Below, piece by piece: positions 1 through 36,302 of a stretch of 64,000 nucleotides of DNA. The notes below the pieces were generated by a model. The model saw nothing but the letters and a program-made list of their open reading frames with translations, had not been told where the DNA came from and ran no database searches. How positions within the stretch are numbered: position 1 is the first letter of the stretch; each line of letters begins with the position of its first letter. The stretch lies in assembly GCF_054482525.1 (NCBI RefSeq), contig NZ_CM137006.1, one strand, 5' to 3'. The position numbers and the translations under genes were made by a program.

Positions 1-1
1 C

Positions 2-268
2 AATACTCAGAAAATTTTCCGCTGGGTGGAGAAAGACACCCCTGATGCGGTTAAAAAAATTCAGGCGTTGTTACCAGCTATCGAAAAAGCAATGCCACCT
101 CTGCTGGTGGCCCGAATGCGCAGTCATAGCTCAGCCTATTTTCGGGAACTAGTGGAGACGCGGGAACGACTGGTGAGAGACGCTGATGATTTTGTCGCAG
201 TGGCGATCGCTGGTTTCAACCAGATGAATCGTGGTGGCCCTGCAGGAAATATTGTGGCTGTGCATTGA
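2..268 (+). CDS. 3' end of a phage gene that is open at the window start; unknown function
   Basis: Reading frame is open from base 2 with no upstream stop; first in-frame start in window is GTG at 26. Confidence 0.3.
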   Translation, partial: NTQKIFRWVEKDTPDAVKKIQALLPAIEKAMPPLLVARMRSHSSAYFRELVETRERLVRDADDFVAVAIAGFNQMNRGGPAGNIVAVH

Positions 269-333
269 CTCGCAATATTCATACCGGATCACTTCCGGCA
301 ATTTGTGAGTAAAAAGATTCGGTATCAAAAGAG

Positions 334-1410
334 GTGAGTATGGCTAACGCCTGGCTCAGATTATGGCATGACATGCCAAATGACCCTAAGTGGCGAACAA
401 TTGCCAGGGTGTCAGGGCAGCCAATTGCAACAGTGATGGCAGTGTATATCCACCTCCTGGTGAGCGCGTCACGAAATGTCACGCGAGGTCACATTGATGT
501 CACGACAGAAGATTTGGCAAGTGCGCTCGACGTGACAGAAGAGGTAATTGATTCAATTTTGCAGACGATGCAGGGGCGGGTACTTGATGGTGATTTAATC
601 ACTGGATGGGAAAAACGCCAGGTGCTTAAAGAGGACAACGGCAATATTTCGCAAACCGCAAAATCTCCTGCAGAGCGCAAGAGGGCGCAGCGAGAGAGGG
701 AAAGAAAGCGGGAACAAAATGGCGATTGTCACGGCGCGTCACGAAATGTCACGCACATGTCACGACGAGTCACGACAGATAAAGATACAGATAAAGATAC
801 AGATCAAGAAGATCAAAACACTATGGTCCATGGCGTAAAAAACGCCACGAACCAGGCAGGGGATGTTCAGACCGTCAATCCTGGTCAGCCAGCAGGCACG
901 ACACCGGAAGCCGATTCAGCGTATGCGCTGAAAGCCGATTCGGGCGCTGTGCAGCAGGTGATGACCGCAAGGCCGGAGCAATCACACCAACTGCAGCAGC
1001 CTGAAGCCGATTCCGCCATTCAGCGGGAAGCCGATCGGGTAGTCCCGGAAAGCACCGGGCAGTCTGTGGGACGAGTGGATTATCCGGATGTGTTCGAACA
1101 GGTCTGGCGGGAGTACCCGTTGCGTGCTGGGGCAAACCCGAAGAAATCCGCTTTCAGTGCTTGGAAGGCCAGATTACGCGAGGGGGTGCCACCAGAGGCC
1201 ATGCTGGATGGCGTGAGGCGTTACGCAAGATACTTGGCGGCTACCGGGAAAACGGGAACGGAATTTGTTCAGCGAGCGACGACGTTTTTTGGACCGGATC
1301 GGAATTTTGAGAACCCCTGGTTGCTCCCGGTAAGCGGCACGAACAACCAGCGTTGTGTGAATCATATTTCTGAACCGGATAACGAAATTCCGCCGGGCTT
1401 CAGGGGGTAA
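334..1410 (+). CDS. Putative phage replication protein with DnaT-like C-terminal domain
   Basis: 358 aa; C-terminus ...SEPDNEIPPGFRG resembles the E. coli DnaT C-terminus as recalled; acidic DKDTDKDTDQEDQ linker; two clusters of GTCACG direct repeats inside the ORF. Confidence 0.5.
   Translation: MSMANAWLRLWHDMPNDPKWRTIARVSGQPIATVMAVYIHLLVSASRNVTRGHIDVTTEDLASALDVTEEVIDSILQTMQGRVLDGDLITGWEKRQVLKEDNGNISQTAKSPAERKRAQRERERKREQNGDCHGASRNVTHMSRRVTTDKDTDKDTDQEDQNTMVHGVKNATNQAGDVQTVNPGQPAGTTPEADSAYALKADSGAVQQVMTARPEQSHQLQQPEADSAIQREADRVVPESTGQSVGRVDYPDVFEQVWREYPLRAGANPKKSAFSAWKARLREGVPPEAMLDGVRRYARYLAATGKTGTEFVQRATTFFGPDRNFENPWLLPVSGTNNQRCVNHISEPDNEIPPGFRG
466..780. repeat. Two clusters of iteron-like direct repeats (GTCACG x4 each), candidate phage origin inside the replication gene
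   Basis: gcgcgtcacgaaatgtcacgc...gtcac..gtcacgacag occurs at about 466-510 and again at about 735-780. Confidence 0.5.
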
Positions 1411-1450
1411 GTGTTAATTTCTGGTCATGAGGTAATTTTCAGGAGGGCTT

Positions 1451-1876
1451 GTGGCAAAAGTTTTTACACAAGAAGAGCGGGAAAAAATTAAAGGGCAGGT
1501 TGTTGAACTTGTACGTCTGAGCGGTCGCGAGACGTTGCGGCAACTGGAAGCCAGGACAGGTGCGACAAGATATCTGATGAGTGTTCTCGCCAGAGAGCTG
1601 GTTGCCAGTGGCGATGTATACAACTCTGGTTACGGGTTATTCCCGTCTGAACAGGCGCGTAAGGACTGGCAAAATGCTCGCAAAAAACTCTCAAGGGCAA
1701 AGGTGAAGAAACCTGCAGTGGTTGATCCGGACCTTATCTGGTCGTTACCAGACGGCGAAATACGCCGCTACGACAGGCGCCTGAATATAATCTGTCGCGA
1801 GTGCCGGAAGAGCGAAGCTATGCAGCGTGTACTGGCATTTTATCAAGGAAATGTTAGGTATTTTAGACGTTACTAG
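1451..1876 (+). CDS. Hypothetical phage early protein
   Basis: 141-aa ORF directly downstream of the replication gene, same strand; no family recognised. Confidence 0.4.
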   Translation: MAKVFTQEEREKIKGQVVELVRLSGRETLRQLEARTGATRYLMSVLARELVASGDVYNSGYGLFPSEQARKDWQNARKKLSRAKVKKPAVVDPDLIWSLPDGEIRRYDRRLNIICRECRKSEAMQRVLAFYQGNVRYFRRY

Positions 1877-2029
1877 ATTAAAGAGCATTAGTTCAGATGT
1901 GAATTGACATTTTCATGGCGCAGGGTAGAGCCAGCGTGGTTGTCCGCTTTGCGTCAAAACCAGATATTACCAGATTTAGACATATATTCCCGATAGACCT
2001 GCTCTGATGCTACACTCTGTGCTATTTTC

Positions 2030-2716
2030 ATGACCCCAATAAAAATATTTATGACTATTGCTGATTTCAAACGGCCTAAATTGGAGCTCCCAAACGGGGC
2101 AAACAAACTACTACTGCACTCTTGCTGTGCTCCATGTTCCGGTGAAGTGATGGAGGCGCTTCAGGCCTCGGGAATCGACTACACCATCTTTTTCTACAAC
2201 CCGAACATTCATCCTCAGAAAGAGTATTTAATTCGTAAGGATGAAAATATTCGCTTTGCTGAACAACACGGCGTGCCGTTTATCGATGCTGATTACGACA
2301 CCGACAACTGGTTTGAACGTGCCAAAGGAATGGAATGGGAGCCTGAGAGGGGGATCCGTTGTACCATGTGTTTTGACATGCGTTTTGAGCGGACAGCGTT
2401 GTACGCTGCTGAAAATGGTTTCAGTGTGATCAGCAGTTCACTGGGCATTTCACGCTGGAAAAATATGCAGCAGGTTAACGAGTGTGGGCGGCGAGCTGTT
2501 GCGCATTATCCGGGTATGGTGTACTGGGATTATAACTGGCGCAAGCAGGGCGGCTCGTCCCGTATGATTGAAATCAGCAAGCGCGAAAAATTCTATCAGC
2601 AGGAATATTGTGGCTGTGTGTATTCTCTGCGCGATACCAATCTACACCGCAAATCTCAGGGACGCCCTCTTATCAAAATTGGCCAACTCCACTACGGAAA
2701 AGAAGAGAAGGAGTGA
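2030..2716 (+). CDS. queH: QueH-like (DUF208) epoxyqueuosine reductase
   Basis: 228 aa with [11 protein letters not shown] near the N-terminus, [20 protein letters not shown] and C-terminal QEYCGCVYS motifs, recalled as the QueH cysteine signature; own upstream TTGACA at 1904-1909. Confidence 0.6.
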
Positions 2717-2952
2717 TTTTATGGATCACCTTTCTGATTGATTTTATATTGGCGAGGTAACGGGAGTTAAGTAGAATGGCTGCGGGTGCTTGAGGCTATC
2801 TGTCTCAGGCATGAACACCAAAGGCAGATAGAGAAAAGCCCCAGTTAACATTACGCGTCCTGCAAGACGCTTAACATTAATCTGAGGCTCAATCTATGAA
2901 CGGCAAATCTAGGTTAGCCTCTTACGTGCCGAAAGGCAAGGAGAAGCAGGCT

Positions 2953-3108
2953 ATGAAGCAGCAAAAGGCGATGTTAATCGCCCTGATCGTCATCTGTTTA
3001 ACCGTCATTGTGACGGCACTGGTAACGAGGAAAGACCTCTGCGAGGTACGAATCCGAACCGGCCAGACGGAGGTCGCTGTCTTCACAGCTTACGAACCTG
3101 AGGAGTAA
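2953..3108 (+). CDS. hokD: Hok/Gef-family type I toxin; in-frame Mok-like N-terminal extension begins at 2896
   Basis: MKQQKAMLIALIVICLTVIVTALVTRKDLCEVRIRTGQTEVAVFTAYEPEE (51 aa) matches Hok/Gef/RelF as recalled; GCTTGAGGC leader motif at about 2788-2800. Confidence 0.7.
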   Translation: MKQQKAMLIALIVICLTVIVTALVTRKDLCEVRIRTGQTEVAVFTAYEPEE

Positions 3109-3251
3109 GAGACCTGGCGGGGGAGAAATCCCTCGCCACCTCTGATGTGTCAGGCATCCTCAACGCACCCGCACTTAACCCGCTTCGGCGTTTTTTCCGT
3201 TGATTAACTCTAGTTATTAGAGAACCGAACTTTTATTGATGGGGCAGGGAG

Positions 3252-3644
3252 ATGAAGAAACTTGTTTTAGTCGCAGGTGTAATGATTGCAACAGTAATGT
3301 TGGGAGGGTGTGCAGCAAAGATCGATCCAGCGTTGAAAGCAGAAGCAATGAAGCCACTAACATGTAATGATGAAAAGCAATGTGACTTTTATTGGAAACG
3401 AGCGCAATTCTGGTTGGCTAATAATTCCTCATGGAAAATTCAAACGGCGACAGACACGCTAATTTCCACTTATAATCCCTCTCCAAATAGTCCATTCCTC
3501 GCTTATCAAGTGAGTAAAATGCCAAATGAAGATGGATCCTCAAGAATTTTCATCAAGCCTTTTTGCGATAATATGTTTGGCTGTCAACCAAACCCCTATC
3601 AGGCAGTTGTTTCCTTTAAAAACTTCGTTAAAACAGGGCAGTAG
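3252..3644 (+). CDS. Predicted lipoprotein of unknown function
   Basis: 130 aa; signal peptide with lipobox (VMLGGCAA); four further Cys; RBS ggga 7 nt upstream. Confidence 0.55.
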   Translation: MKKLVLVAGVMIATVMLGGCAAKIDPALKAEAMKPLTCNDEKQCDFYWKRAQFWLANNSSWKIQTATDTLISTYNPSPNSPFLAYQVSKMPNEDGSSRIFIKPFCDNMFGCQPNPYQAVVSFKNFVKTGQ

Positions 3645-3843
3645 TGTATAGCTTGGACGATAAATTATTAGTGAAAACGCCGTAAACCCTCACCCAATGT
3701 GGACTAAGTCTATCAAACATGACTGTGATGATTAGTCCGTAGTTGTTGTCTATGAAATCTGGATTGAGTCAGGGTTTAATCCAATAATTATTCTATCGTT
3801 CCTTTACAAGTCCGGTATATTACTTTCAGTTTGTTTTAGCATA

Positions 3844-3868
3844 CCCGCTTCGGCGGGTTTTGTTTTTT
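3844..3868 (+). terminator. Rho-independent terminator
   Basis: cccgcttcggcggg hairpin followed by a T-run. Confidence 0.5.
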
Positions 3869-3940
3869 CCTGGCATTCTGGTTTACAATTCGCACGCCAG
3901 CCTGAACAACTGGCACCTGCTGCGCCAGCAGAGACAACCG

Positions 3941-4219
3941 ATGGCGCACGATACCAAATTACACAATTCTGATGATTCTGCCGTCTTTGCCAGCAGGCAC
4001 GGGCGGCGTTCCCGCACTTTCAAATCTGACTGGTTCCAGCATGACCCATGTACTGAAGAACAGGCCGAATGGCTAATTCATAACTATCGCAGACGCGGAT
4101 ACGAGATTAAGAAAGCCCTCAGCCTCGATTATCGTCACTGGATAATCTATGTCAGGCTCCCTTATTCCGAACGCCCACCGCGCCCATCCCGCACATACCA
4201 GCAACGGATCTGGAGGTAA
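3941..4219 (+). CDS. Hypothetical nin-region protein (possibly YbcO/DUF1364-like)
   Basis: ORF 3860-4219; internal Met at 3941 (MAHDTKLHNSDD...) chosen because a terminator occupies 3844-3868. Confidence 0.35.
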   Translation: MAHDTKLHNSDDSAVFASRHGRRSRTFKSDWFQHDPCTEEQAEWLIHNYRRRGYEIKKALSLDYRHWIIYVRLPYSERPPRPSRTYQQRIWR

Positions 4220-5270
4220 CGTGCGGATATTACTTCGACCTGTTCTGGTACCGGAACTCGGGCTGGTGGTCCTTAGGCCGGGCCGTGAATCCATGCAAGT
4301 ATTTCATAACCCTCGAGTGCTGGTGGAGCCTGAACCGAAAAGCATGCGCGGTCTGCCGTCCGGAGTCGTCCCTGCCGTTCGCCAGCCGCTGGCGGAGGAT
4401 AAATCATTACTGCCATTTTTCAGCGATGAGCGGGTGATTCGTGCTGCTGGCGGCGCTGGGGCGCTGTCTGACTGGCTGTTGCGTCATGTCAAATCCTGCC
4501 AGTGGCCTCATGGTGACTATCATCACAGTGAAATCGTCATACATCGTTACGGTACCAGCGCGATGGTGTTGTGCTGGCACTGCGACAACCAGTTGCGTGA
4601 CCAGACATCCGAATCACTCGGGCAACTTGCTCATCAAAACCTGTCAGCATGGATGATTGACGTCATACGCCATGCAATGAATGGCACGCAGGAGCGGGAA
4701 TTGTCGCTGGCTGAATTATCTTGGTGGGCGGTCTGCAATCAGGTGGCGGACGCGCTTCCGGAGGCAGTATTACGTCGTTCTCTGGGGGTACGTGCGGAAA
4801 AAATCCGCTCCTTGTACCGCGAAAGCGACATCGTACCGGGAGAGCAGACCGCCACCAGCATACTGAAGCAGCGCACAAAAAATCTTGCGCCGTTGCCTCA
4901 TGCCCACCAGCAACAGAACCCACCACAGGAAAAGACGGTGGTATGCATCACCGTTGATCCGGAGTCTCCGGAATCTTTCATGAGGCGACCTAAACGTCGC
5001 CGTTGGCTAAATGAGAAATATACGCGCTGGGTGAAGACACAGCCGTGTGCGTGTTGTGGTCAGCCAGCCGACGATCCCCATCACCTGATTGGTCACGGTC
5101 AGGGAGGGATGGGAACAAAGGCCCACGATATTTTCACGCTACCGTTGTGCCGGGAACATCACAACGAACTTCATGCGGATCCGCTGGCGTTCGAAGAAAA
5201 GCATGGTTCCCAGGTTGATTTAATTTTTCGTTTTCTTGATCACGCCTTTGCAACCGGCGTGCTCGGGTAA
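4149..5270 (+). CDS. DUF968-like protein with C-terminal HNH-type zinc motif
   Basis: C-terminus CACCGQPADDPHHLIGHGQGGMGTKAHDIFTLPLCREHHNELH; same position as ydfU-type genes upstream of rusA/Q in E. coli prophages; start ambiguous (4149 or 4290). Confidence 0.5.
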   Translation: MSGSLIPNAHRAHPAHTSNGSGGNVRILLRPVLVPELGLVVLRPGRESMQVFHNPRVLVEPEPKSMRGLPSGVVPAVRQPLAEDKSLLPFFSDERVIRAAGGAGALSDWLLRHVKSCQWPHGDYHHSEIVIHRYGTSAMVLCWHCDNQLRDQTSESLGQLAHQNLSAWMIDVIRHAMNGTQERELSLAELSWWAVCNQVADALPEAVLRRSLGVRAEKIRSLYRESDIVPGEQTATSILKQRTKNLAPLPHAHQQQNPPQEKTVVCITVDPESPESFMRRPKRRRWLNEKYTRWVKTQPCACCGQPADDPHHLIGHGQGGMGTKAHDIFTLPLCREHHNELHADPLAFEEKHGSQVDLIFRFLDHAFATGVLG

Positions 5271-5282
5271 AAGAGGTTACTG

Positions 5283-5642
5283 ATGCGTATAGAGTTTGTT
5301 TTGCCTTATCCGCCGACGGTGAATACTTACTGGCGACGTCGTGGCAACACATATTTTGTATCAAAAGTCGGTGAGCGTTATCGCCGTGATGTGGCACTAA
5401 TTGTTCGCCAGCAGCGGTTGAAATTAAACCTGTCCGGAAGGCTGGCAATAAAAATTATTGCAGAGCCACCGGATAAGCGCCGCCGCGACCTGGACAATAT
5501 CCTGAAGGCACCACTGGATGCGCTGACGCATGCCGGACTTCTCATAGACGACGAGCAGTTTGATGAAATCAATATTGTGCGCGGACTGCCTGTTCCTGGT
5601 GGTCGGCTGGGGATAAAAATCACAGAACTGGAGTGCGCATGA
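5283..5642 (+). CDS. rusA: Holliday junction resolvase RusA
   Basis: 119 aa; LPYPPTVNTYW, RRRDLDNILKAPLDAL and GGRLGIKITELE align with RusA as recalled. Confidence 0.8.
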   Translation: MRIEFVLPYPPTVNTYWRRRGNTYFVSKVGERYRRDVALIVRQQRLKLNLSGRLAIKIIAEPPDKRRRDLDNILKAPLDALTHAGLLIDDEQFDEINIVRGLPVPGGRLGIKITELECA

Positions 5643-6328
5643 ATAACCAGTATTTACAGTTTGTGCGTGAGCAGCTCATTATCGCCACCGCTGATTTGAG
5701 TGGGGCAACAAAAGGTCAGCTTGAAGCCTGGCAAGAGAATGCCATGTTCGATACAGGGCGTTACAGGCGAAAAAAAATCCGGTACCGCGATGAAGTGACT
5801 GGAAAAATGATAACGCGGGATAATCCACCAATCCCGGGAAAGCAATCGCTGGCGAAGGGGACGTCAATTCCTCTGGTCAGTCCGGTTGAGTTTTCGACAT
5901 CATCGTGGCGGCGGGCTGTTTTGTCTCTTGAAGAACATCATAAAGCCTGGTTGTTGTGGTGTTACAGCGGGAGTATTTGTTGGGAATATCAGATCGCGAT
6001 AACACAGTGGGCGTGGAATGAATTTAATACTCAATCCGGTACCAGAAAAATTGCAGGGAAAACGCAGGAACGCCTGAAAAAATTAATCTGGCTGGCGGCG
6101 CAGGCAGTAAAAGCAGAACTTTTTGGTGGGGAAGGTTATGAATACCAGGAGCTGGCATTACTGGCGGGAGTGACAACTAAAAACTGGTCCAAAACATTTA
6201 CTCGTCACTGGGTTGCAATGAAACACATTTTTCACCGACTTGATAGTGAGGCTTTATTGTTTGTAATGAGAACACGTTCAAAACAAAAGGCGGCATTTTC
6301 AAAGCAAAGTATTGCAAAAGTAGATTGA
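5633..6328 (+). CDS. Putative late-gene antiterminator (Q-like)
   Basis: 231 aa directly downstream of rusA and upstream of a terminator, tRNA cluster and lysis genes; assignment by position only. Confidence 0.45.
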   Translation: MRMNNQYLQFVREQLIIATADLSGATKGQLEAWQENAMFDTGRYRRKKIRYRDEVTGKMITRDNPPIPGKQSLAKGTSIPLVSPVEFSTSSWRRAVLSLEEHHKAWLLWCYSGSICWEYQIAITQWAWNEFNTQSGTRKIAGKTQERLKKLIWLAAQAVKAELFGGEGYEYQELALLAGVTTKNWSKTFTRHWVAMKHIFHRLDSEALLFVMRTRSKQKAAFSKQSIAKVD

Positions 6329-6522: not shown

Positions 6523-6598
6523 GGCCCTTTAGCTCAGTGGTGAGAGCGAGCGACTCATAATCGCCAGGTCGCTGGTTCAAATCCAGCAAGGGCCACCA
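6523..6598 (+). tRNA. tRNA with CAT anticodon (Ile2/Met-type)
   Basis: 76 nt cloverleaf ending CCA; anticodon loop CTCATAA; close to E. coli ileX as recalled. Confidence 0.7.
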
Positions 6599-6599
6599 G

Positions 6600-6676
6600 C
6601 CGCCACTAGCTCATCAGGAAAGAGCGTCAACCCTTTAAGTTGAGTGTGCGAGGTTCGAGTCCCCGGTGGCGGTCCA
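6600..6676 (+). tRNA. Atypical tRNA-like gene (anticodon loop CCTTTAA, UUU with C33); possibly non-canonical or pseudo-tRNA
   Basis: 77 nt; acceptor CCGCCAC/GTGGCGG plus T-CCA; D-arm GCTC/GAGC; T-loop TTCGAGT; one A-C mismatch in T-stem. Confidence 0.4.
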
Positions 6677-6678
6677 GT

Positions 6679-6754
<76 letters not shown>

Positions 6755-6757
6755 TAT

Positions 6758-6832
<75 letters not shown>

Positions 6833-7123: not shown

Positions 7124-7339
7124 ATGAAATCCATGGACAAAATTTCAACGGGCATTGCCTACGGCACCTCCGCAGGCAGTGCTGGCTACTGGTTTTTACA
7201 GTGGCTTGATCAGGTCAGTCCGTCACAGTGGGCTGCGATTGGTGTACTGGGGAGTCTGGTTCTGGGCTTCCTGACTTATCTGACAAATCTGTACTTCAAA
7301 ATCAGAGAAGACAAGCGTAAGGCTGCACGGGGAGAGTAA
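7124..7339 (+). CDS. S: Class II holin (phage 21 S-like pinholin)
   Basis: 71 aa; [26 protein letters not shown]... with dual-start MKSM; matches S21 as recalled. Confidence 0.8.
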
Positions 7340-7343
7340 TTCA

Positions 7344-7694
7344 ATGACTCAAAACTATGAACTGATTGTGAAAGGGATCCGCAATTTTGAGAATAAAGTT
7401 ACGGTAACTTTAGCGTTACGGGACAAAAAACGCTTTGACGGCGAAATTTTTGACCTGGACATCTCGCTGGACCGTGTTGAAGGTGCCGCGCTGGAGTTTT
7501 ATGAGGCAGCAGCCAGAAGGAGCATCAGACAGGTCTTCCTGGATGTTGCTGCCGGGTTATGTGAAGGGGATGAGCAGTCGCCGGAAAAGCGCCCCGTAAT
7601 TTTAGAGGCGCAGAATGTGTGGATAACCTACAAAGGAAAGCTACCAGGAAGAATTACTGGTTCTCTGAAGACTCCTCCGGAATCACAACCTTAA
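7344..7694 (+). CDS. Hypothetical protein between holin and endolysin (YdfR/DUF1327-like by position)
   Basis: 116-aa ORF 4 nt after the holin stop; Qin prophage has ydfR in the same position. Confidence 0.4.
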   Translation: MTQNYELIVKGIRNFENKVTVTLALRDKKRFDGEIFDLDISLDRVEGAALEFYEAAARRSIRQVFLDVAAGLCEGDEQSPEKRPVILEAQNVWITYKGKLPGRITGSLKTPPESQP

Positions 7695-7757
7695 GTCACT
7701 GACCGGAACAGATAAACCTGTCCGTGGGCAGAAACCGATAAATCCTGATAAATATCC

Positions 7758-8291
7758 ATGAACGCAAAAATCAGATACGGCCTGTCGGCTGCCGTTCTGG
7801 CACTGATTGCCGTCGGTGCGCCCGCGCCTGATATTCTCGACCAGTTTCTGGATGAAAAAGAAGGTAACCACACAACGGCATACCGCGATGGTTCCGGCAT
7901 CTGGACCATCTGTCGGGGTGCCACGATGGTGGATGGAAAACCCGTTTTTCCCGGTATGAAACTGTCGAAGGAAAAATGCGACCAGGTCAACGCCATTGAG
8001 CGTGATAAGGCGCTGGCATGGGTGGAGCGCAATATTAAAGTACCACTGACCGAACCACAAAAAGCGGGTATCGCGTCATTTTGTCCCTATAACATTGGCC
8101 CCGGTAAGTGTTTTCCATCGACGTTTTATAAGCGGCTGAATGCTGGTGATCGTAAGGGCGCATGCGAGGCGATTCGCTGGTGGATAAAAGATGGTGGGCG
8201 CGATTGCCGCATACGTTCAAATAACTGCTATGGACAGGTTATTCGTCGTGACCAGGAAAGCGCATTAGCCTGTTGGGGAATAGATCAGTGA
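7758..8291 (+). CDS. R: SAR endolysin (T4-lysozyme-like, GH24)
   Basis: 177 aa; N-terminal hydrophobic signal-anchor-release stretch; catalytic motif [16 protein letters not shown]. Confidence 0.8.
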
Positions 8292-8755
8292 GCAGAGTCG
8301 CCGCGATTATTTATGCTCTGGTTATCTGCATCATCGTCTGCCTGTCGTGGGCGGTCAATCATTACCGTGATAACGCCATCACCTACAAAGAACAGCGTGA
8401 TAAAAAAGTCAGTGAGCTGAAGCAGCTGACCGCCACCATCGCTGACATGCAGCAGCGTCAGCGTGATGTTGCTGCGCTCGATGCAAAGTACTCGAGAGAA
8501 TTAGCCAATGCGAAAGCTGAAAATGAAACTCTGCGCGCTGATGTTGCCGCTGGTCGTAAGCGCCTGCGGGTCAATGCCAGTTGCTCCGCAGCCGTGCGTG
8601 AAGCCACCGGACCCACCAGCGTGGATAATGCAACCAGCCCCAGACTGGCAGACACCGCTGAACGGGATTATTTCACCCTCAGAGAACGGTTGATGACGAT
8701 GCAGAAGCAACTGGAAGGGGCACAGCTATACATTCGTGAGCAATGTCTCAGATAA
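8273..8755 (+). CDS. Rz: Spanin inner-membrane subunit (Rz-like)
   Basis: N-terminal TM segment, coiled-coil body, overlaps endolysin 3' end; Rz1 ORF embedded in +1 frame. Confidence 0.6.
8508..8693 (+). CDS. Rz1: Spanin outer-membrane lipoprotein (Rz1-like), embedded in Rz
   Basis: 61 aa; lipobox LVVSAC; proline-rich mature part. Confidence 0.7.
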
Positions 8756-28818: not shown

Positions 28819-31224
28819 GTGGATATGGCAGCAGTAAAAATCTCAGGTGTGCTGAAAGATGGTGCGGGAAAACCAATACAGAACTGCACTATTCAACTGA
28901 AGGCAAAGCGTAACAGCACCACGGTACTGGTGAACACGGTGGCCTCTGAAAATCCGGATGAAGCCGGGCGTTACAGCATGGATGTTGAGTATGGCCAGTA
29001 CAGCGTCATCCTGCTGGTTGAAGGTTTTCCGCCTTCACATGCCGGGACCATTACCGTCTATGAAGGCTCCAGACCAGGTACGCTGAATGATTTTCTCGGT
29101 GCCATGACGGAAGATGATGTCATGCCGGAGGCATTGCGTCGTTTTGAGGAAATGGTGGAAGAAGCGGCACGCAACGCTGAAGCCGCCTCTCAGAGCGCAG
29201 CGGCGGCAAAGAAATCAGAAACTGCAGCGGCATCATCGAAGAACGCGGCGAAAACCTCAGAAACGAATGCAGCTAACAGCGCACAGGCGGCAGCGGCCTC
29301 ACAGACTGCATCAGCAAACTCCGCGACAGCAGCCAAAAAATCAGAAACCAACGCGAAAAATAGCGAGACAGCCGCAAAGACGAGCGAAACCAACGCAAAG
29401 TCCAGCCAGACGGCAGCGAAAACCAGCGAAACGAATGCCAAAGCCAGTGAAACTGCGGCAAAAAACAGCCAGGTTGCAGCAGCCCAAAGCGAGAGCGCGG
29501 CAGCCGGTTCTGCGACTTCAGCAGCTGGATCAGCAACTGCTGCGGCTAACAGCCAGAAAGCTGCGAAGACGAGTGAAACTAACGCAAAGTCCAGCCAGAC
29601 GGCAGCGAAGACCAGCGAAACGAATGCCAAAGCCAGCGAAACTGCGGCGAAAAACAGTCAGGATGCAGCAGCCCAAAGCGAGAGTGCTGCAGCTGGTTCT
29701 GCAAGCGCGGCGGCTGCTTCTGCCACTGCATCAGCCAACAGTCAAAAAGCAGCAAAAACCAGTGAAACCAATGCAAAGACAAGCGAGACTGCAGCGGCGA
29801 ACTCGGCGAAAGCATCGGCAGCAAGCCAGACAGCAGCTAAAGCAAGTGAAGACGCAGCCAGAGAGTATGCAAGTCAGGCAGCAGAGCCGTATAAATATGT
29901 CTTACAGCCACTGCCTGATGTGTGGATACCGTTTAACGATTCACTGGATATGATTACGGGCTTTTCGCCGTCATATAAAAAAATTGTTATTGGTGATGAT
30001 GAAATAACGATGCCTGGCGACAAGGTTGTTAAGTTTAAACGCGCATCAACTGCCACATATATCAATAAATCAGGCGTATTTAGTGTTGCTAAAATTGATG
30101 AGCCACGATTTGAAAAAGAAGGTTTATTGATTGAAGGACAGCGCACTAACTATTTTGTTAAATCCAATACTCCCGCTGAATGGACGAGTACCAGCAATAT
30201 CGATAAAACTAATAATGGTGTTGATGAATTTGGTTTTTCATATGCCAAAATGCGAACAAAAGATAATATGACAGGACAATCATCTGCACTTAGTCTGCAT
30301 ACATGCAGTGCATCCCGGGGGATTGATGTTAGTGGCGATAATAAGTATTGCACTGTTTCATGCAGGGTTAAAGCTCCTGATGGTCTTCGTTGTCGTTTGC
30401 GTTTTGAAAAATACGATGGGTCGGTTTATACATTTTTAGGAGATGCTTATTTAACTTTCGGAACTCTGATAATAGAAAAAACTGGCGGAGCAGCCAATAG
30501 AATAGCAGCTACTGCAACTAAAGATCCGGTTACAGGGTGGATTTTCTATGAGGCAACTATAGAAGCTGTTGAAGGTGAAACCTTAATTGGCGCAATGATT
30601 CAGTATGCGCCGAAAAAAGGTGGTATAACTGAAGCGGGAGATTATATTTACCTTGCAACACCACAATTTGAAAACGGCGGATGTGCTTCATCTTTTGTTA
30701 TTACGACAACTGCACCCGCAACCCGCTCCAGTGATATGGTGACGATCCCAACTGAAAATAATATCTATAATAGACCGCTTACGTGTCTTGTCGAGGTTAA
30801 TAGAAATTGGGGCGATATTCCTCCTAATGTAGCACCGCGTATTTTTGATTTTTCTGGTGTGCCACCTATTGAGTCAATTACATACGCTTTTAACACAACT
30901 GAGAAATATTACGGTCAGCTTTATATGCAGACTTATAAAGCGTCGACAAGTACTTACGTTTCTAGTGTGTTTGCTGGTCGAACTGATGTTCGAAAATTCA
31001 TTGGTGGTTTTAATATTTATTCTGATGGTACTAAACGAGTAGTTTCTAACGGTGAGGCTACTAAAACTATGAAAACGGAGTGGACGGGCGTAAAAACACG
31101 GACCTTTATTCGAATTGGAGGTCAAGCCACATCGGGAACTCGTCATCTATTCGGCCATTTGAGAAATCTTCGTCTCTGGCATAAAGAATTAACTGATGCG
31201 CAAATGGGGGAGAGTATTAAATGA
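28819..31224 (+). CDS. stf: Side tail fibre protein (Stf-like) with Ala/Ser/Thr repeat stalk
   Basis: 801 aa; N-terminus like lambda Stf as recalled; central KTSETNAKxSxTAA repeats. Confidence 0.8.
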   Translation: MDMAAVKISGVLKDGAGKPIQNCTIQLKAKRNSTTVLVNTVASENPDEAGRYSMDVEYGQYSVILLVEGFPPSHAGTITVYEGSRPGTLNDFLGAMTEDDVMPEALRRFEEMVEEAARNAEAASQSAAAAKKSETAAASSKNAAKTSETNAANSAQAAAASQTASANSATAAKKSETNAKNSETAAKTSETNAKSSQTAAKTSETNAKASETAAKNSQVAAAQSESAAAGSATSAAGSATAAANSQKAAKTSETNAKSSQTAAKTSETNAKASETAAKNSQDAAAQSESAAAGSASAAAASATASANSQKAAKTSETNAKTSETAAANSAKASAASQTAAKASEDAAREYASQAAEPYKYVLQPLPDVWIPFNDSLDMITGFSPSYKKIVIGDDEITMPGDKVVKFKRASTATYINKSGVFSVAKIDEPRFEKEGLLIEGQRTNYFVKSNTPAEWTSTSNIDKTNNGVDEFGFSYAKMRTKDNMTGQSSALSLHTCSASRGIDVSGDNKYCTVSCRVKAPDGLRCRLRFEKYDGSVYTFLGDAYLTFGTLIIEKTGGAANRIAATATKDPVTGWIFYEATIEAVEGETLIGAMIQYAPKKGGITEAGDYIYLATPQFENGGCASSFVITTTAPATRSSDMVTIPTENNIYNRPLTCLVEVNRNWGDIPPNVAPRIFDFSGVPPIESITYAFNTTEKYYGQLYMQTYKASTSTYVSSVFAGRTDVRKFIGGFNIYSDGTKRVVSNGEATKTMKTEWTGVKTRTFIRIGGQATSGTRHLFGHLRNLRLWHKELTDAQMGESIK
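29180..29860 (+). repeat. In-frame tandem repeats within stf, including a direct duplication of about 120-190 bp
   Basis: gcaaagtccagccagacggcagcgaa... occurs at about 29395 and again at about 29581; many shorter related units. Confidence 0.7.
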
Positions 31225-31511: not shown

Positions 31512-32552
31512 ATGGCTACATCGACAGTAATTCCTGATGATATCAAAACGCTAAAATCCGACGTTAGCAAATTAAAAAACGATCAAGGGAGCTACGCAAC
31601 AAAATCATATGTAGACAATAAAACAACATGGAATAGTTATTGCAATGTAATCTATGATCAAAAGACATTGCCGACCACTGGAACTATATTTAGCGGTAAG
31701 ATTCACTTGTCAAATAAGACAGGAGAAACCGAAAACGCTTATAGTGAGATGTACACCAGAAAAAATATTGACGGTACAAAAGATACAATGACAAGGATTG
31801 TCACACACAATGGAACAAAAGGTATCTTTTGGGATTTTAGCGATCTTTACGGCGGAACATTAATTTTTCCAGGCAGTGATGGTTACCTTAAGATGGGGAA
31901 CTGTCTCATGTCGTATGGTGTGCGGGGAAGTAACGCGCTTATTAAGTTTGACTGCACAGACACATTACAAATCAAATATGCCAATCATGGGTCAACCATG
32001 ACATTAAACACACAGGGGACCGCTCATTCTGGCGCTACTACTAGTTTGTGGGGTAACTCTACCCGTCCGGTTGTATATGAAGTTGGTGCTGATGGTGGCG
32101 CGTATATGTTCTATGCGCAGAAAAATACCGATAACACCTATATGTTAAGCGTTAATGGTGCATGTCATGCCACCGCATTTAACCAGCATTCCGACCGGGA
32201 TCTGAAAGACAACATTCAGGTGATCGATAATGCAACCGACCGCATCCGTAAAATGAACGGCTATACATACACGCTTAAAGAAAACGGTATGCCCTATGCA
32301 GGTGTCATTGCACAGGAAGCTCTGGAAGCAATCCCAGAAGTTGTAGGTTCCGCAATGAAATATCAGGACGGTGCAAGCGGATCGGAAGGTGAAGAAGGTG
32401 AACGTTATTACACAGTAGATTATTCTGGTGTTACTGGCTTGCTTGTTCAGGTAGCCAGAGAGTCAGACGACAGAATAACAGTACTGGAAGAAGAAAACGC
32501 AGAATTAAGGCAAAGATTATCTGCAATTGAGGCGACGCTTGCGTCTAAATAA
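31512..32552 (+). CDS. Second tail fibre/spike-like protein with C-terminal intramolecular chaperone (peptidase S74-like) domain
   Basis: 346 aa; C-terminal DRDLKDNIQVID...RIRKMNGYTYTLK...GVIAQEA plus terminal coiled coil. Confidence 0.6.
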   Translation: MATSTVIPDDIKTLKSDVSKLKNDQGSYATKSYVDNKTTWNSYCNVIYDQKTLPTTGTIFSGKIHLSNKTGETENAYSEMYTRKNIDGTKDTMTRIVTHNGTKGIFWDFSDLYGGTLIFPGSDGYLKMGNCLMSYGVRGSNALIKFDCTDTLQIKYANHGSTMTLNTQGTAHSGATTSLWGNSTRPVVYEVGADGGAYMFYAQKNTDNTYMLSVNGACHATAFNQHSDRDLKDNIQVIDNATDRIRKMNGYTYTLKENGMPYAGVIAQEALEAIPEVVGSAMKYQDGASGSEGEEGERYYTVDYSGVTGLLVQVARESDDRITVLEEENAELRQRLSAIEATLASK

Positions 32553-32587
32553 TATTAAGGGCTATGCGCCCCGTTTTATTGGGTAGG

Positions 32588-32881
32588 ATGAAAATGGATA
32601 TAACACCTTTTCTTCATGCGCTTTGTGCTGTGGCTGCGCAGGTACTGGTTGGTTTTTTTACCGGAAACTGGGCTTACGGGGCGATAGCCGGTTGTACATT
32701 CTTCATTGCGCGGGAACACACCCAGGCAGAATATCGCTGGATTGAAATGTTCGGGCATGGCAAGCGGATTAACATGCCGTGGTGGGGCGGTTTTGATCCA
32801 CGTGCATGGGATGTGGCAAGCCTGATGGATTTTGCTGTGCCGGTGGTGGCGTGTCTGCTGATCTGGATGTTGATCCGTTAA
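32588..32881 (+). CDS. Hypothetical membrane protein at prophage right end
   Basis: ORF 32564-32881; two hydrophobic segments; followed by a hairpin at about 32900-32935. Confidence 0.3.
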   Translation: MKMDITPFLHALCAVAAQVLVGFFTGNWAYGAIAGCTFFIAREHTQAEYRWIEMFGHGKRINMPWWGGFDPRAWDVASLMDFAVPVVACLLIWMLIR

Positions 32882-33228
32882 ATATAAAAAGTAAAAAGCC
32901 GCAGTAACTTGTCATGATAGGATACTGCGGCTGGCTGGTTAACTTTCGATAGTGCGAGTATTGAATGATTTCCAGCCGTTACCGATTTTATATAACTGCA
33001 GTGGAATTATTCAACACACAGGCAAAACGGAATAAGCTGAGAAAAAAGCGTGCTTACCCAATCTGGGGTAAATCACGTCTGAATGACACCTGAAAACAGG
33101 TGGTGGCCTCAAGAAGGCTTGGAATATTCTTCTTTAATGTTATGTAATTTATTGATTTTTCGTGTACGATTTTAAGACATTTATTCCAAGAAAAATTTTT
33201 AACTCTTTGATTTTTCGACTCTGTATCA

Positions 33229-33290
33229 TCGGTCTCGAAAACCGGAGTAGGGGCAACTCTACCGGGGGTTCAAATCCCCCTCTCTCCGCC
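33229..33290 (+). other. Prophage right attachment site: 3' 62 nt of tRNA-Ser (serU-like), not a complete tRNA
   Basis: cggtctcgaaaaccggagtaggggcaactctaccgggggttcaaatccccctctctccgcca matches the 3' part of tRNA-Ser(CGA) as recalled; 5' half absent. Confidence 0.7.
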
Positions 33291-33960
33291 ACTTTATCAA
33301 TGACTTATCTCCCGACTTCCCGCCTTGCTTTTCCTAAACAGAACAATCGTAGAATATTCTTGAAGGGTTAGATCGTCACTGTTTTCTGTTCGATACTGTG
33401 ACATTCAGCACTTGATTCGCTATGGATCTGACAGGAAGGTCTCGAGCGAAAATCTGCAGTTATTCAGTCGTTTTCTTATCGGTCACCATTATTCTTTTAG
33501 ACATTGATCCTACGAAGCTGCCGCAAAGTTGGTGGTGGGAACTGAATTTGCGTAGAGAAGGGGTCAATAATTGAGCCAAAAAAGGAACGCGGCCGTCAGA
33601 TTAAAGCCGCGGGACAAAGTCCATAATTTCCAAGAGTTGTTGAATTTCCCAGCTTTTTTGAAAGCCTTTGTATCATACTAACAAGTAAAAAAGGTTTAAA
33701 TACCAAAATTAACCTATATTTCTGGTTAGCTTTACCATGACAGATGACTTGCTCCTGGAGACATTGGCGCAGCCAGTCTGTATTGGTGAGTTGTGTATTT
33801 ATTGTTCGCCGTTTTCTCAGTTTTTTTCTACAGACATAATAAAAAAGACACGTCTCAAGCATGAGCGTGTCTGAGTTTGTCTTATTTATTTGTCTTGGTA
33901 AATTATTGTCGTTACTACCAGGCACTGTTCTGTTAAATAATTGAAGTCAGCGCAAAAAAA

Positions 33961-34611
33961 TCAATGAGACATCATTTCCTCGACCACTTCTTCGCTACTC
34001 AACTGATATGGATAATACGTTGGCCAGTTTTCCATTTCATTTAATAAAGATTGCTGTGAATCATTACCCATAAAAATGTGAAAATGAGATGATTTTCGTG
34101 GTGCAATTATATGATCGCTAAATTGTATATATTTAGGGGCTTTGCTTTTAGGATCTTTACATTCGAATAAGTAACGAACGCCTTTCTTGCCTGATTTATA
34201 GGTGAGTATTTTGTATCCATCGTAATCATATTTACAGGATGTTGTTTCATTATTTCTATGGAATTCAACAATGCCGTCCTCAATGCCAATCATCTCGATA
34301 TCTGTCACATAACCTTTGCGATAATAATCTTTAATTTCAGCAAATGTTTTAGTTTTATCTGCATCCGCTTTCTTCTGAAAGACGGGGTCAAGTTTGCCAC
34401 TTTGCAGTAAAGGATAAACGGATTGCCAGACTCCATCCCAGTCACTGAGCGTTCGGTTTTGTACATTGGCATCATCAAAAACACCATTAGCAGCTTTTTG
34501 TTCGACCTCTGTTAAGGGTTTGCCGTGTGAGTGATGACCATGCGAAAAGGCAGGAGCGCTAACAATAAAGACACCTAAAGCAACAGCCAGTTTATGAAGA
34601 CGAATCGCCAA
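33961..34611 (-). CDS. zinT: Metal-binding protein ZinT
   Basis: 216 aa; signal peptide and His-rich HGHHSHG motif; synteny with msrQP. Confidence 0.85.
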
Positions 34612-34819
34612 AACAGTTTCCTCCAGAGTTAATGTATATGATGTGTAATGTTATATTGTAACACATAAAAAAATGCAACAACTCTTAGGAGACAAGAGAA
34701 TAGTTCTCTCAGGTGTGCTTATCTATCTTATTGAAATAAAATAAATTATGTCGATGATTTGAGGTTGATGACAAACGAAACATAACCTAATGCGATCTGT
34801 GTATGCCGGATAAGGCGCT

Positions 34820-35574
<755 letters not shown>

Positions 35575-35678
35575 ATCAGCATACTTGTCCTTAGCCTTCT
35601 GCAGTGACAGCTGGTAGTACAGCGTGCTTCTGGCCAGCCCTGCAGCCTTTAACAGGTCAGACTGGCAGTGTCCGCACC

Positions 35679-36209
35679 TCAGGCTCCGGATGACTTTCGT
35701 TTTTTCTCCAGCTCCTGGCGCTTTTTTTCCAGGAGATGCTCCTGCATGGCTTTCAGATATGCATTTTCTGCGCGAAGATAACGCAGCTCATTCTTCATCT
35801 CTTCCGGCGTCATGTTTGCCTCGTTTTCATGGGTATCATCAGAACGGGTCATGCTTTTCTCCTTCCTGCGCCTGATAAAGGCCTCATTACCAGATTTGCG
35901 GTAGCCTTTTATCCAGTTTTTAACCGTGTTGTGGCTGGGAATGTTAAACCGGGCAGCTACCCGGGGTAGAGACTCAGAATGCCCGAGAGCATAAAGAACC
36001 ACGCAAAGTTTATCTTCAGGAGAATAGCTACGCTTGTGTCTGCAATCCAGTGCCCGAGGACCGTGAAGAAGAAAAAGATTAATCCAGTGTGAGAGGCTGG
36101 TGTGAGAAAGTTGAAAGAGTTTTGCCGTAGAAATGATGCCTGCATGACCAGCCAGGTAATGATTTACAGCGGCAAGTTTTACTTCAAATGAATGTTTCAT
36201 AAACTGCAC
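35679..36209 (-). CDS. IS3-family transposase OrfA (HTH)
   Basis: 176 aa with HTH N-terminus and leucine-zipper-like C-terminus. Confidence 0.8.
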   Translation of the reverse strand: MQFMKHSFEVKLAAVNHYLAGHAGIISTAKLFQLSHTSLSHWINLFLLHGPRALDCRHKRSYSPEDKLCVVLYALGHSESLPRVAARFNIPSHNTVKNWIKGYRKSGNEAFIRRRKEKSMTRSDDTHENEANMTPEEMKNELRYLRAENAYLKAMQEHLLEKKRQELEKKRKSSGA

Positions 36210-36302
36210 CTTCAGATGTCAGATTATGTCCAACATTTGGGGTGCAGTTCAGCTCGCGCCGCATCCGGCAGGGATAACGCGTACTTTGTCGGCAATATGA
36301 AG

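Follow-up and report, generated by a model that had tools for sequence, protein, structure and literature searches.

An attachment site of a lambdoid prophage in serU, adjacent to a common yodB-less allele of the serU-zinT region

The 64,000-nucleotide stretch of DNA analysed here (contig NZ_CM137006.1 of assembly GCF_054482525.1), which we call the window, contains the right end of a prophage, and a 62-nt fragment of a tRNA-Ser gene found at this end is the attR site of a lambdoid prophage integrated in serU. There is very little doubt in our view that this attR is an ordinary one, and that the DNA to its right is native chromosome carrying a common allele without yodB, part of an older difference between strains of which the phage is not the cause.

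Results

The tRNA fragment at the right end of the prophage

The window starts inside the prophage, in its early/replication region. At the right end, the tail-fibre genes extend to 32552 and are followed by a small hypothetical gene (32564-32881), after which the features of the junction are the following:

1-33229, plus strand: right-hand 33 kb of the lambdoid prophage (HK97-type head, lambda-type tail), with 99.8% identity to the strain 405 prophage in serU from 6485 onward
32882-33229, plus strand: non-coding phage arm of attR, the equivalent of the lambda P arm, 36% GC
33230-33291, plus strand: core of attR, made of the original serU 3' part, now displaced; exact and unique match, identity with SCU-102 beginning exactly at 33230

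The 62-nt core, CGGTCTCGAAAACCGGAGTAGGGGCAACTCTACCGGGGGTTCAAATCCCCCTCTCTCCGCCA, has a single exact occurrence in the window (33230-33291, plus strand, no mismatch), and none was found in 100 shuffles. It corresponds to positions 29 to 90 of the K-12 serU gene for tRNA-Ser(CGA), which begin on the 5' side of the anticodon stem and include the CCA end. The 30 bases upstream of it are phage DNA unrelated to the 5' part of serU, and no copy of this 5' part was detected in the whole window when up to 4 mismatches were allowed. ARAGORN called no tRNA at the fragment. An earlier note on this DNA had described a 3' fragment of tRNA-Ser(CGA) without its 5' half; this description holds, with 62 exactly matching nucleotides, but the start that it gave, 33229, is one base too far to the left. 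The tail-fibre genes lie directly on one side of the boundary, identity with the prophage-free chromosome of strain SCU-102 starts on the other, and the tRNA segment is placed exactly between the two.

The left end of the prophage in related genomes

Within the window, neither a second copy of the 62-nt core nor an integrase with attL was found. The prophage is collinear with that of strain 405, which would put attL some 8 kb to the left of window position 1 and explains why no second core copy lies inside it. The structure of this end is presumably similar to that of strains 405 and XH992; what follows describes these two related genomes rather than the source genome.

Positions 6485-34742 of the window are 99.8% identical to strain 405, whose serU prophage measures about 41 kb. 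The order in strain 405 is asnT, mtfA, intact serU, tyrosine integrase, early genes and a cluster of four tRNA genes, then lysis genes, HK97-type head, lambda-type tail, tail fibres, the 62-nt fragment and zinT. Both prophage ends are laid out in the same way in XH992. At the left end in both strains, serU is intact, 60 of the 62 core positions are identical, and the tyrosine integrase gene follows directly. These layouts support the suggestion of the earlier note that integration took place in serU, with an intact tRNA gene and an integrase at the other end. In both strains, the integrase adjoining the rebuilt serU is annotated as frameshifted by RefSeq:

7262-8312 of the strain 405 stretch: frameshifted integrase (RefSeq annotation)
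2567-3617 of the XH992 stretch: frameshifted integrase (RefSeq annotation)

Because of this annotation in both relatives, the element may no longer excise, and prophages of this lineage may be fixed in the chromosome.

Some additional properties of the prophage were recorded. Its early/replication region (window 1-5612) is mosaic relative to strain 405, with blocks of 90 to 97% identity separated by gaps. A cluster of four tRNA genes (CAT, Lys-TTT, Thr-TGT and Gly-TCC) occupies 6523-6832, and in the strain 405 prophage this cluster is located just downstream of the late antiterminator gene; the tRNA with anticodon CAT is Met according to ARAGORN, and its homologue is Ile according to RefSeq. 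The side tail-fibre protein (801 aa, 28819-31224) includes a long low-complexity run of repeats rich in Ala, Ser and Thr (...KTSETNAKSSQTAAKTSETNAKASETAAKNSQ...). Directly beyond mtfA-serU, strain 405 carries the yersiniabactin island (HPI, at asnT; positions 1-6153 of the strain 405 stretch).

Position of the crossover and candidate integrase sites

Compared with K-12 serU and with the attR fragment, the tRNA gene at attL in strains 405 and XH992 carries a compensatory pair of changes in the variable arm, A48G with T59C. This pair is the signature of the phage-supplied 3' part of the tRNA. It implies that the DNA from position 48 onward is of phage origin, and would place the strand exchange within tRNA positions 29 to 47 (CGGTCTCGAAAACCGGAGT), in the anticodon stem-loop.

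The phage arm at attR contains two copies of CTTGGAATA in inverted orientation (33118-33126 on the plus strand, 33182-33190 on the minus strand), as well as an 18-nt direct repeat (33145-33162 and 33200-33217, 83% identical) with the shared core TTGATTTTTCG. On the arm adjoining attL in strains 405 and XH992, CTTGGAATA is present in three copies, in direct order. The CTTGGAATA motifs and the 18-nt repeats of the attR arm are candidate arm-type integrase sites. An attP combining arm and core in a free phage was absent among the best phage-collection matches, whose coverage ended near 32990, about 240 bp before the core.

The sharing of CTTGGAATA by the two arms also bears on whether the fragment belongs to the present prophage at all. 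It might instead be the relic of an earlier, different element in serU, tandem or decayed, as several elements use this gene (for instance a P4-like integrase island in Escherichia sp. MOD1-EC7003) and some genomes carry up to four copies of the core region. We consider this very unlikely, given the common motif and three further observations: phage DNA is unbroken to 33229 and chromosomal identity begins at the next base; the identical junction of phage arm, core and chromosome recurs in 838 of 5426 complete E. coli genomes (15%); and in the stretches from the relatives, the only other serU sequence is the intact tRNA gene of attL, next to the integrase.

The DNA between the fragment and zinT

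To the right of the core, the following features are found:

33292-33738, no strand: native DNA downstream of serU, common to both E. coli alleles and without genes
33739-33960, no strand: 222-bp segment specific to the yodB-less allele, which replaces 995 bp (yodB and flanks) of K-12-type strains
33846-33872, minus strand: intrinsic terminator hairpin of zinT, with a stem of 10 to 11 bp, a one-base bulge and U6 at 33840-33845
33961-34611, minus strand: zinT (yodA), periplasmic zinc-binding protein (Pfam PF09223 ZinT, E = 3e-85; annotated by RefSeq in SCU-102 and 405)
34820-36251, minus strand: IS1397 (IS3 family, 1432 bp), between zinT and msrQ, outside the junction

The spacer that separates the core from zinT (33292-33960) is 669 bp long and has a GC content of 39.5%, compared to 50.4% for the whole window. 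The neighbouring chromosomal genes are equally AT-rich (38.2% GC for zinT, 42.2% for K-12 yodB), so the composition of the spacer is a trait of this chromosomal neighbourhood and not a mark of foreign DNA. Thirty of the 5427 matching records, taken at even intervals along their ranking, all contain the first part of the spacer, 33292-33738, whole or partly. A phage origin of the spacer, as AT-rich foreign DNA, was therefore rejected, since all E. coli in this sample have it and its composition is shared by zinT and yodB.

Open reading frames in the spacer are short (31 to 109 aa). Three of them (45, 50 and 109 aa) were compared to Pfam and gave no match below E = 0.1; the protein of the 45-aa frame (33737-33874) is not conserved in E. 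albertii, as judged by reading the sequence by eye. An Rfam search of 32500-35000 with a permissive threshold returned nothing at gathering score, and its sub-threshold matches (a plastid 3'UTR family on the opposite strand, the T-arm of tmRNA, and sX4) were rejected as echoes of the tRNA fragment. In the RefSeq annotation, the identical SCU-102 spacer is free of CDS, and so is the interval from the last gene of the prophage to zinT in strain 405. A protein or RNA gene in the spacer is thus unsupported, in agreement with the earlier description of this segment as about 670 bp of AT-rich DNA devoid of convincing genes.

The zinT gene and its terminator, which the earlier note also listed, are attested by the Pfam match and by the folding of the hairpin (-17.9 kcal/mol, z = -3.1), which is bulged and has UUUUUU next to it on the zinT strand. 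A simple terminator scan did not report this hairpin, presumably because its stem contains the one-base bulge. Related hairpins occur at the same place, some 90 nt from the stop codon of zinT, in the yodB-less allele, in K-12 and in E. albertii.

On the other side of zinT, the two open reading frames of IS1397 are on the minus strand (34852-35574 and 35679-36209). The element sits in the middle of a REP palindromic unit, between GCCGGATAAGGCGCT and CGCGCCGCATCCGGC, and the same insertion is present in SCU-102 and absent in K-12. IS1397 has a known preference for palindromic units, which the insertion site at 34820-36251 fits.

Two alleles between serU and zinT

K-12 has the order zinT-yodB-serU, as the earlier note had stated, and a tblastn search of the entire window confirmed the absence of yodB that it had suspected. 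When the spacer was aligned to K-12, the match covered 33230-33738 (96.7% identity) and resumed at the zinT stop codon, 33961 (98.4%). Between these two matches, the window has 222 bp and K-12 has 995 bp including yodB (positions 3510-4504 of the K-12 stretch). The distance from the att core to the breakpoint at 33738/33739 is 447 bp, and the other end of the replaced segment coincides exactly with the zinT stop codon. The sole similarity between the 222-bp and the 995-bp segments is a block of 37 nt around the terminator hairpin, so that a simple deletion cannot derive either one from the other.

Among 5426 complete E. coli genomes, the 222-bp segment was found in 2292 (42%) and the 995-bp yodB segment in 3114 (57%), and the two alleles jointly cover 5406 of them. 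The yodB difference is a common strain polymorphism that has already been noted in the literature: presence or absence of yodB separates the ST410 sub-clones B4 (present) and B5 (absent), and in clone B5 the absence of yodB goes together with the presence of fyuA (PMC10786849). The window carries the 'absent' state of this marker. The ST410 paper gives no structure for the alleles (PMC10786849), for which we describe here a 222/995-bp replacement that ends at the zinT stop codon, the yodB-less state being as in E. albertii. The yodB-less allele may travel with the HPI through recombination in the flanks, although strain SCU-102 lacks yodB and yet has no HPI at asnT.

The absence of yodB is independent of the prophage

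Strain SCU-102 has no prophage and shows the order mtfA, intact serU, the 669-bp yodB-less spacer, zinT, IS1397, msrQ. This strain is near-isogenic to the source of the window on the chromosomal side: identity is 100% over 33230-34700 and 99.987% over 33230-64000 (4 mismatches in 30,771 bp). With its uninterrupted serU and the same flanks, SCU-102 is an empty site in a background already without yodB. The reciprocal situation was found in XH992 and Ecol_545, where yodB is present beside the same prophage junction. All four combinations of prophage and yodB thus exist: neither prophage nor absence of yodB in K-12 (prophage absent, yodB present), both absent in SCU-102, both present in XH992, and prophage present with yodB absent in the window.

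The earlier note had attributed the missing yodB to a deletion or replacement that came with the integration into serU. The proposal draws on the presence of yodB between zinT and serU in K-12, on its absence from the window, and on the position of the gap, within 700 bp of the prophage end. It is, however, contradicted by the identical spacer in the prophage-free SCU-102, by the retention of yodB next to the same junction in XH992 and Ecol_545, and by the 447 bp of native serU-downstream DNA that separate the core from the breakpoint. Moreover, the yodB-less allele (42% of genomes) is far from confined to the junction (15%), and E. albertii also lacks yodB. We find an integration-linked loss scarcely credible, and conclude that the loss of yodB is independent of the integration of the prophage.

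Which of the two alleles is older

The polarity of the yodB difference was assessed with two outgroup species, E. albertii and the cryptic species Escherichia sp. MOD1-EC7003. The E. albertii locus was obtained via an exact-protein look-up. It reads mtfA, serU and zinT without yodB, serU and zinT being 564 bp apart. In Blast comparisons, E. albertii aligned with the yodB-less allele continuously from window position 33689 through zinT, at 81% identity, whereas with K-12 it aligned only up to the breakpoint and then again within zinT. The 81% block, which includes zinT, is comparable to the mtfA-serU block (83.6%) and below zinT alone (88.5%). Next to zinT, the E. albertii sequence is similar to the 222-bp allele (z = 7.4 for the local score) but not to the 995 bp of K-12 (z = 0.4); the likeness to the 222 bp is weak outside the hairpin, with 45 of 62 aligned positions identical in the best local block.

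MOD1-EC7003 also has no yodB between the end of serU and zinT. Its locus (positions 3890-5485 of its stretch) represents a third state, in which the P4-like integrase island abuts the last 14 nt or so of serU. Only about 150 bp separate the end of serU from the zinT stop codon in this genome, and most of the 669-bp spacer is missing.

The absence of yodB from both outgroups suggests that the yodB-less arrangement is the older one, and that yodB was probably gained within E. coli. Our confidence in such a gain is moderate, because only two outgroups support it. A wider set of zinT loci was collected by scanning a genome collection with a degenerate zinT motif, in a sample that did not include E. 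coli, E. fergusonii or Salmonella; none of the 28 loci from other genera had a YodB match nearby, many of these loci being short.

Conversely, the yodB arrangement could be ancestral, with the 222-bp allele arising by a loss of yodB unrelated to phage, followed by divergence of the flank, or by import from another Escherichia lineage. The yodB allele is indeed the majority one (57%), and the related terminator hairpin lies at the same distance from zinT in both alleles, which indicates that part of the segment is positionally homologous. Nevertheless, the 222 bp and the 995 bp cannot be aligned apart from the hairpin, as a simple deletion would require, the yodB-less allele aligns collinearly with E. 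albertii (about 81% identity), and neither the two outgroup species nor the 28 loci, short as many of them are, have yodB. We regard an ancestral yodB as unlikely, though it keeps some weight.

The gain can be set in a wider scenario, an old two-allele polymorphism between serU and zinT in which about 1 kb containing yodB would have replaced some 220 bp of ancestral DNA up to the zinT stop codon. Both alleles would have persisted throughout the species (42% and 57%), possibly alongside recombination imports of the adjoining asnT/HPI region, and the prophage junction would be adjacent by coincidence. To this scenario taken as a whole we give an even chance. No scar of a mobile element was noticed at the yodB replacement.

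Discussion

The history of the junction can be pictured as follows. A lambdoid temperate phage, whose attP would carry a copy of the 3' part of the tRNA-Ser(CGA) gene, integrated into serU by site-specific recombination mediated by a tyrosine recombinase. With strands exchanged within the anticodon stem-loop part of the 62 nt common to phage and host, a tRNA gene would be rebuilt at attL, about 8 kb outside the window, from the 5' part of the host gene and the 3' part brought by the phage. The original 3' part of the host gene was left behind at attR, as a dead fragment at 33230-33291. Everything to the right of 33291 is the untouched chromosome of a strain that already had the yodB-less allele; the other allele probably acquired yodB later, in exchange for some 220 bp at the end of zinT.

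Such a junction is ordinary and of a kind known before. P4, P22, HP1, 21 and many islands are tyrosine-integrase elements that insert into the 3' part of a tRNA gene and supply a replacement for it from attP, and exchange in the anticodon stem-loop is the standard mechanism of their integrases. A sublocation scheme for these elements was reportedly proposed by Williams in 2002. The serU junction shares with this class a core that spans the anticodon stem-loop to the CCA end, a dead fragment at one end with a tRNA gene that, as in strains 405 and XH992, would be rebuilt at the integrase end, and a crossover that the phage-specific pair 48/59 would confine to the anticodon stem-loop; no departure from the class was found at this junction.

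The target gene is also that of known lambdoid prophages, such as CP-933U/Sp14 of O157:H7. The Stx1d prophage of O121:H7 strain RM8082 is published as located 'serU ... yodB' (PMC9729726). Compared with serU lambdoid prophages such as the latter, the prophage described here uses the same target gene and, judging by strains 405 and XH992, has the same layout, with the intact tRNA gene and the integrase at one end, the 3' fragment at the other, and yodB/zinT beyond the fragment. It differs in two respects: its portion within the window showed neither stx nor any other notable cargo, and the first chromosomal gene after attR is zinT instead of yodB, owing to the yodB-less spacer. On the whole, it behaves as the well-known lambdoid prophages that target tRNA genes.

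In annotations, the proper label for the 62-nt fragment is an attR remnant of serU and not a damaged tRNA gene, and the missing yodB should not be counted as collateral damage of the prophage. Beyond this, the serU junction matters little; the clean description of the zinT-serU dimorphism is a modest by-product, whose breakpoints, frequencies and outgroup state may be of help where yodB serves as a lineage marker, as in ST410.
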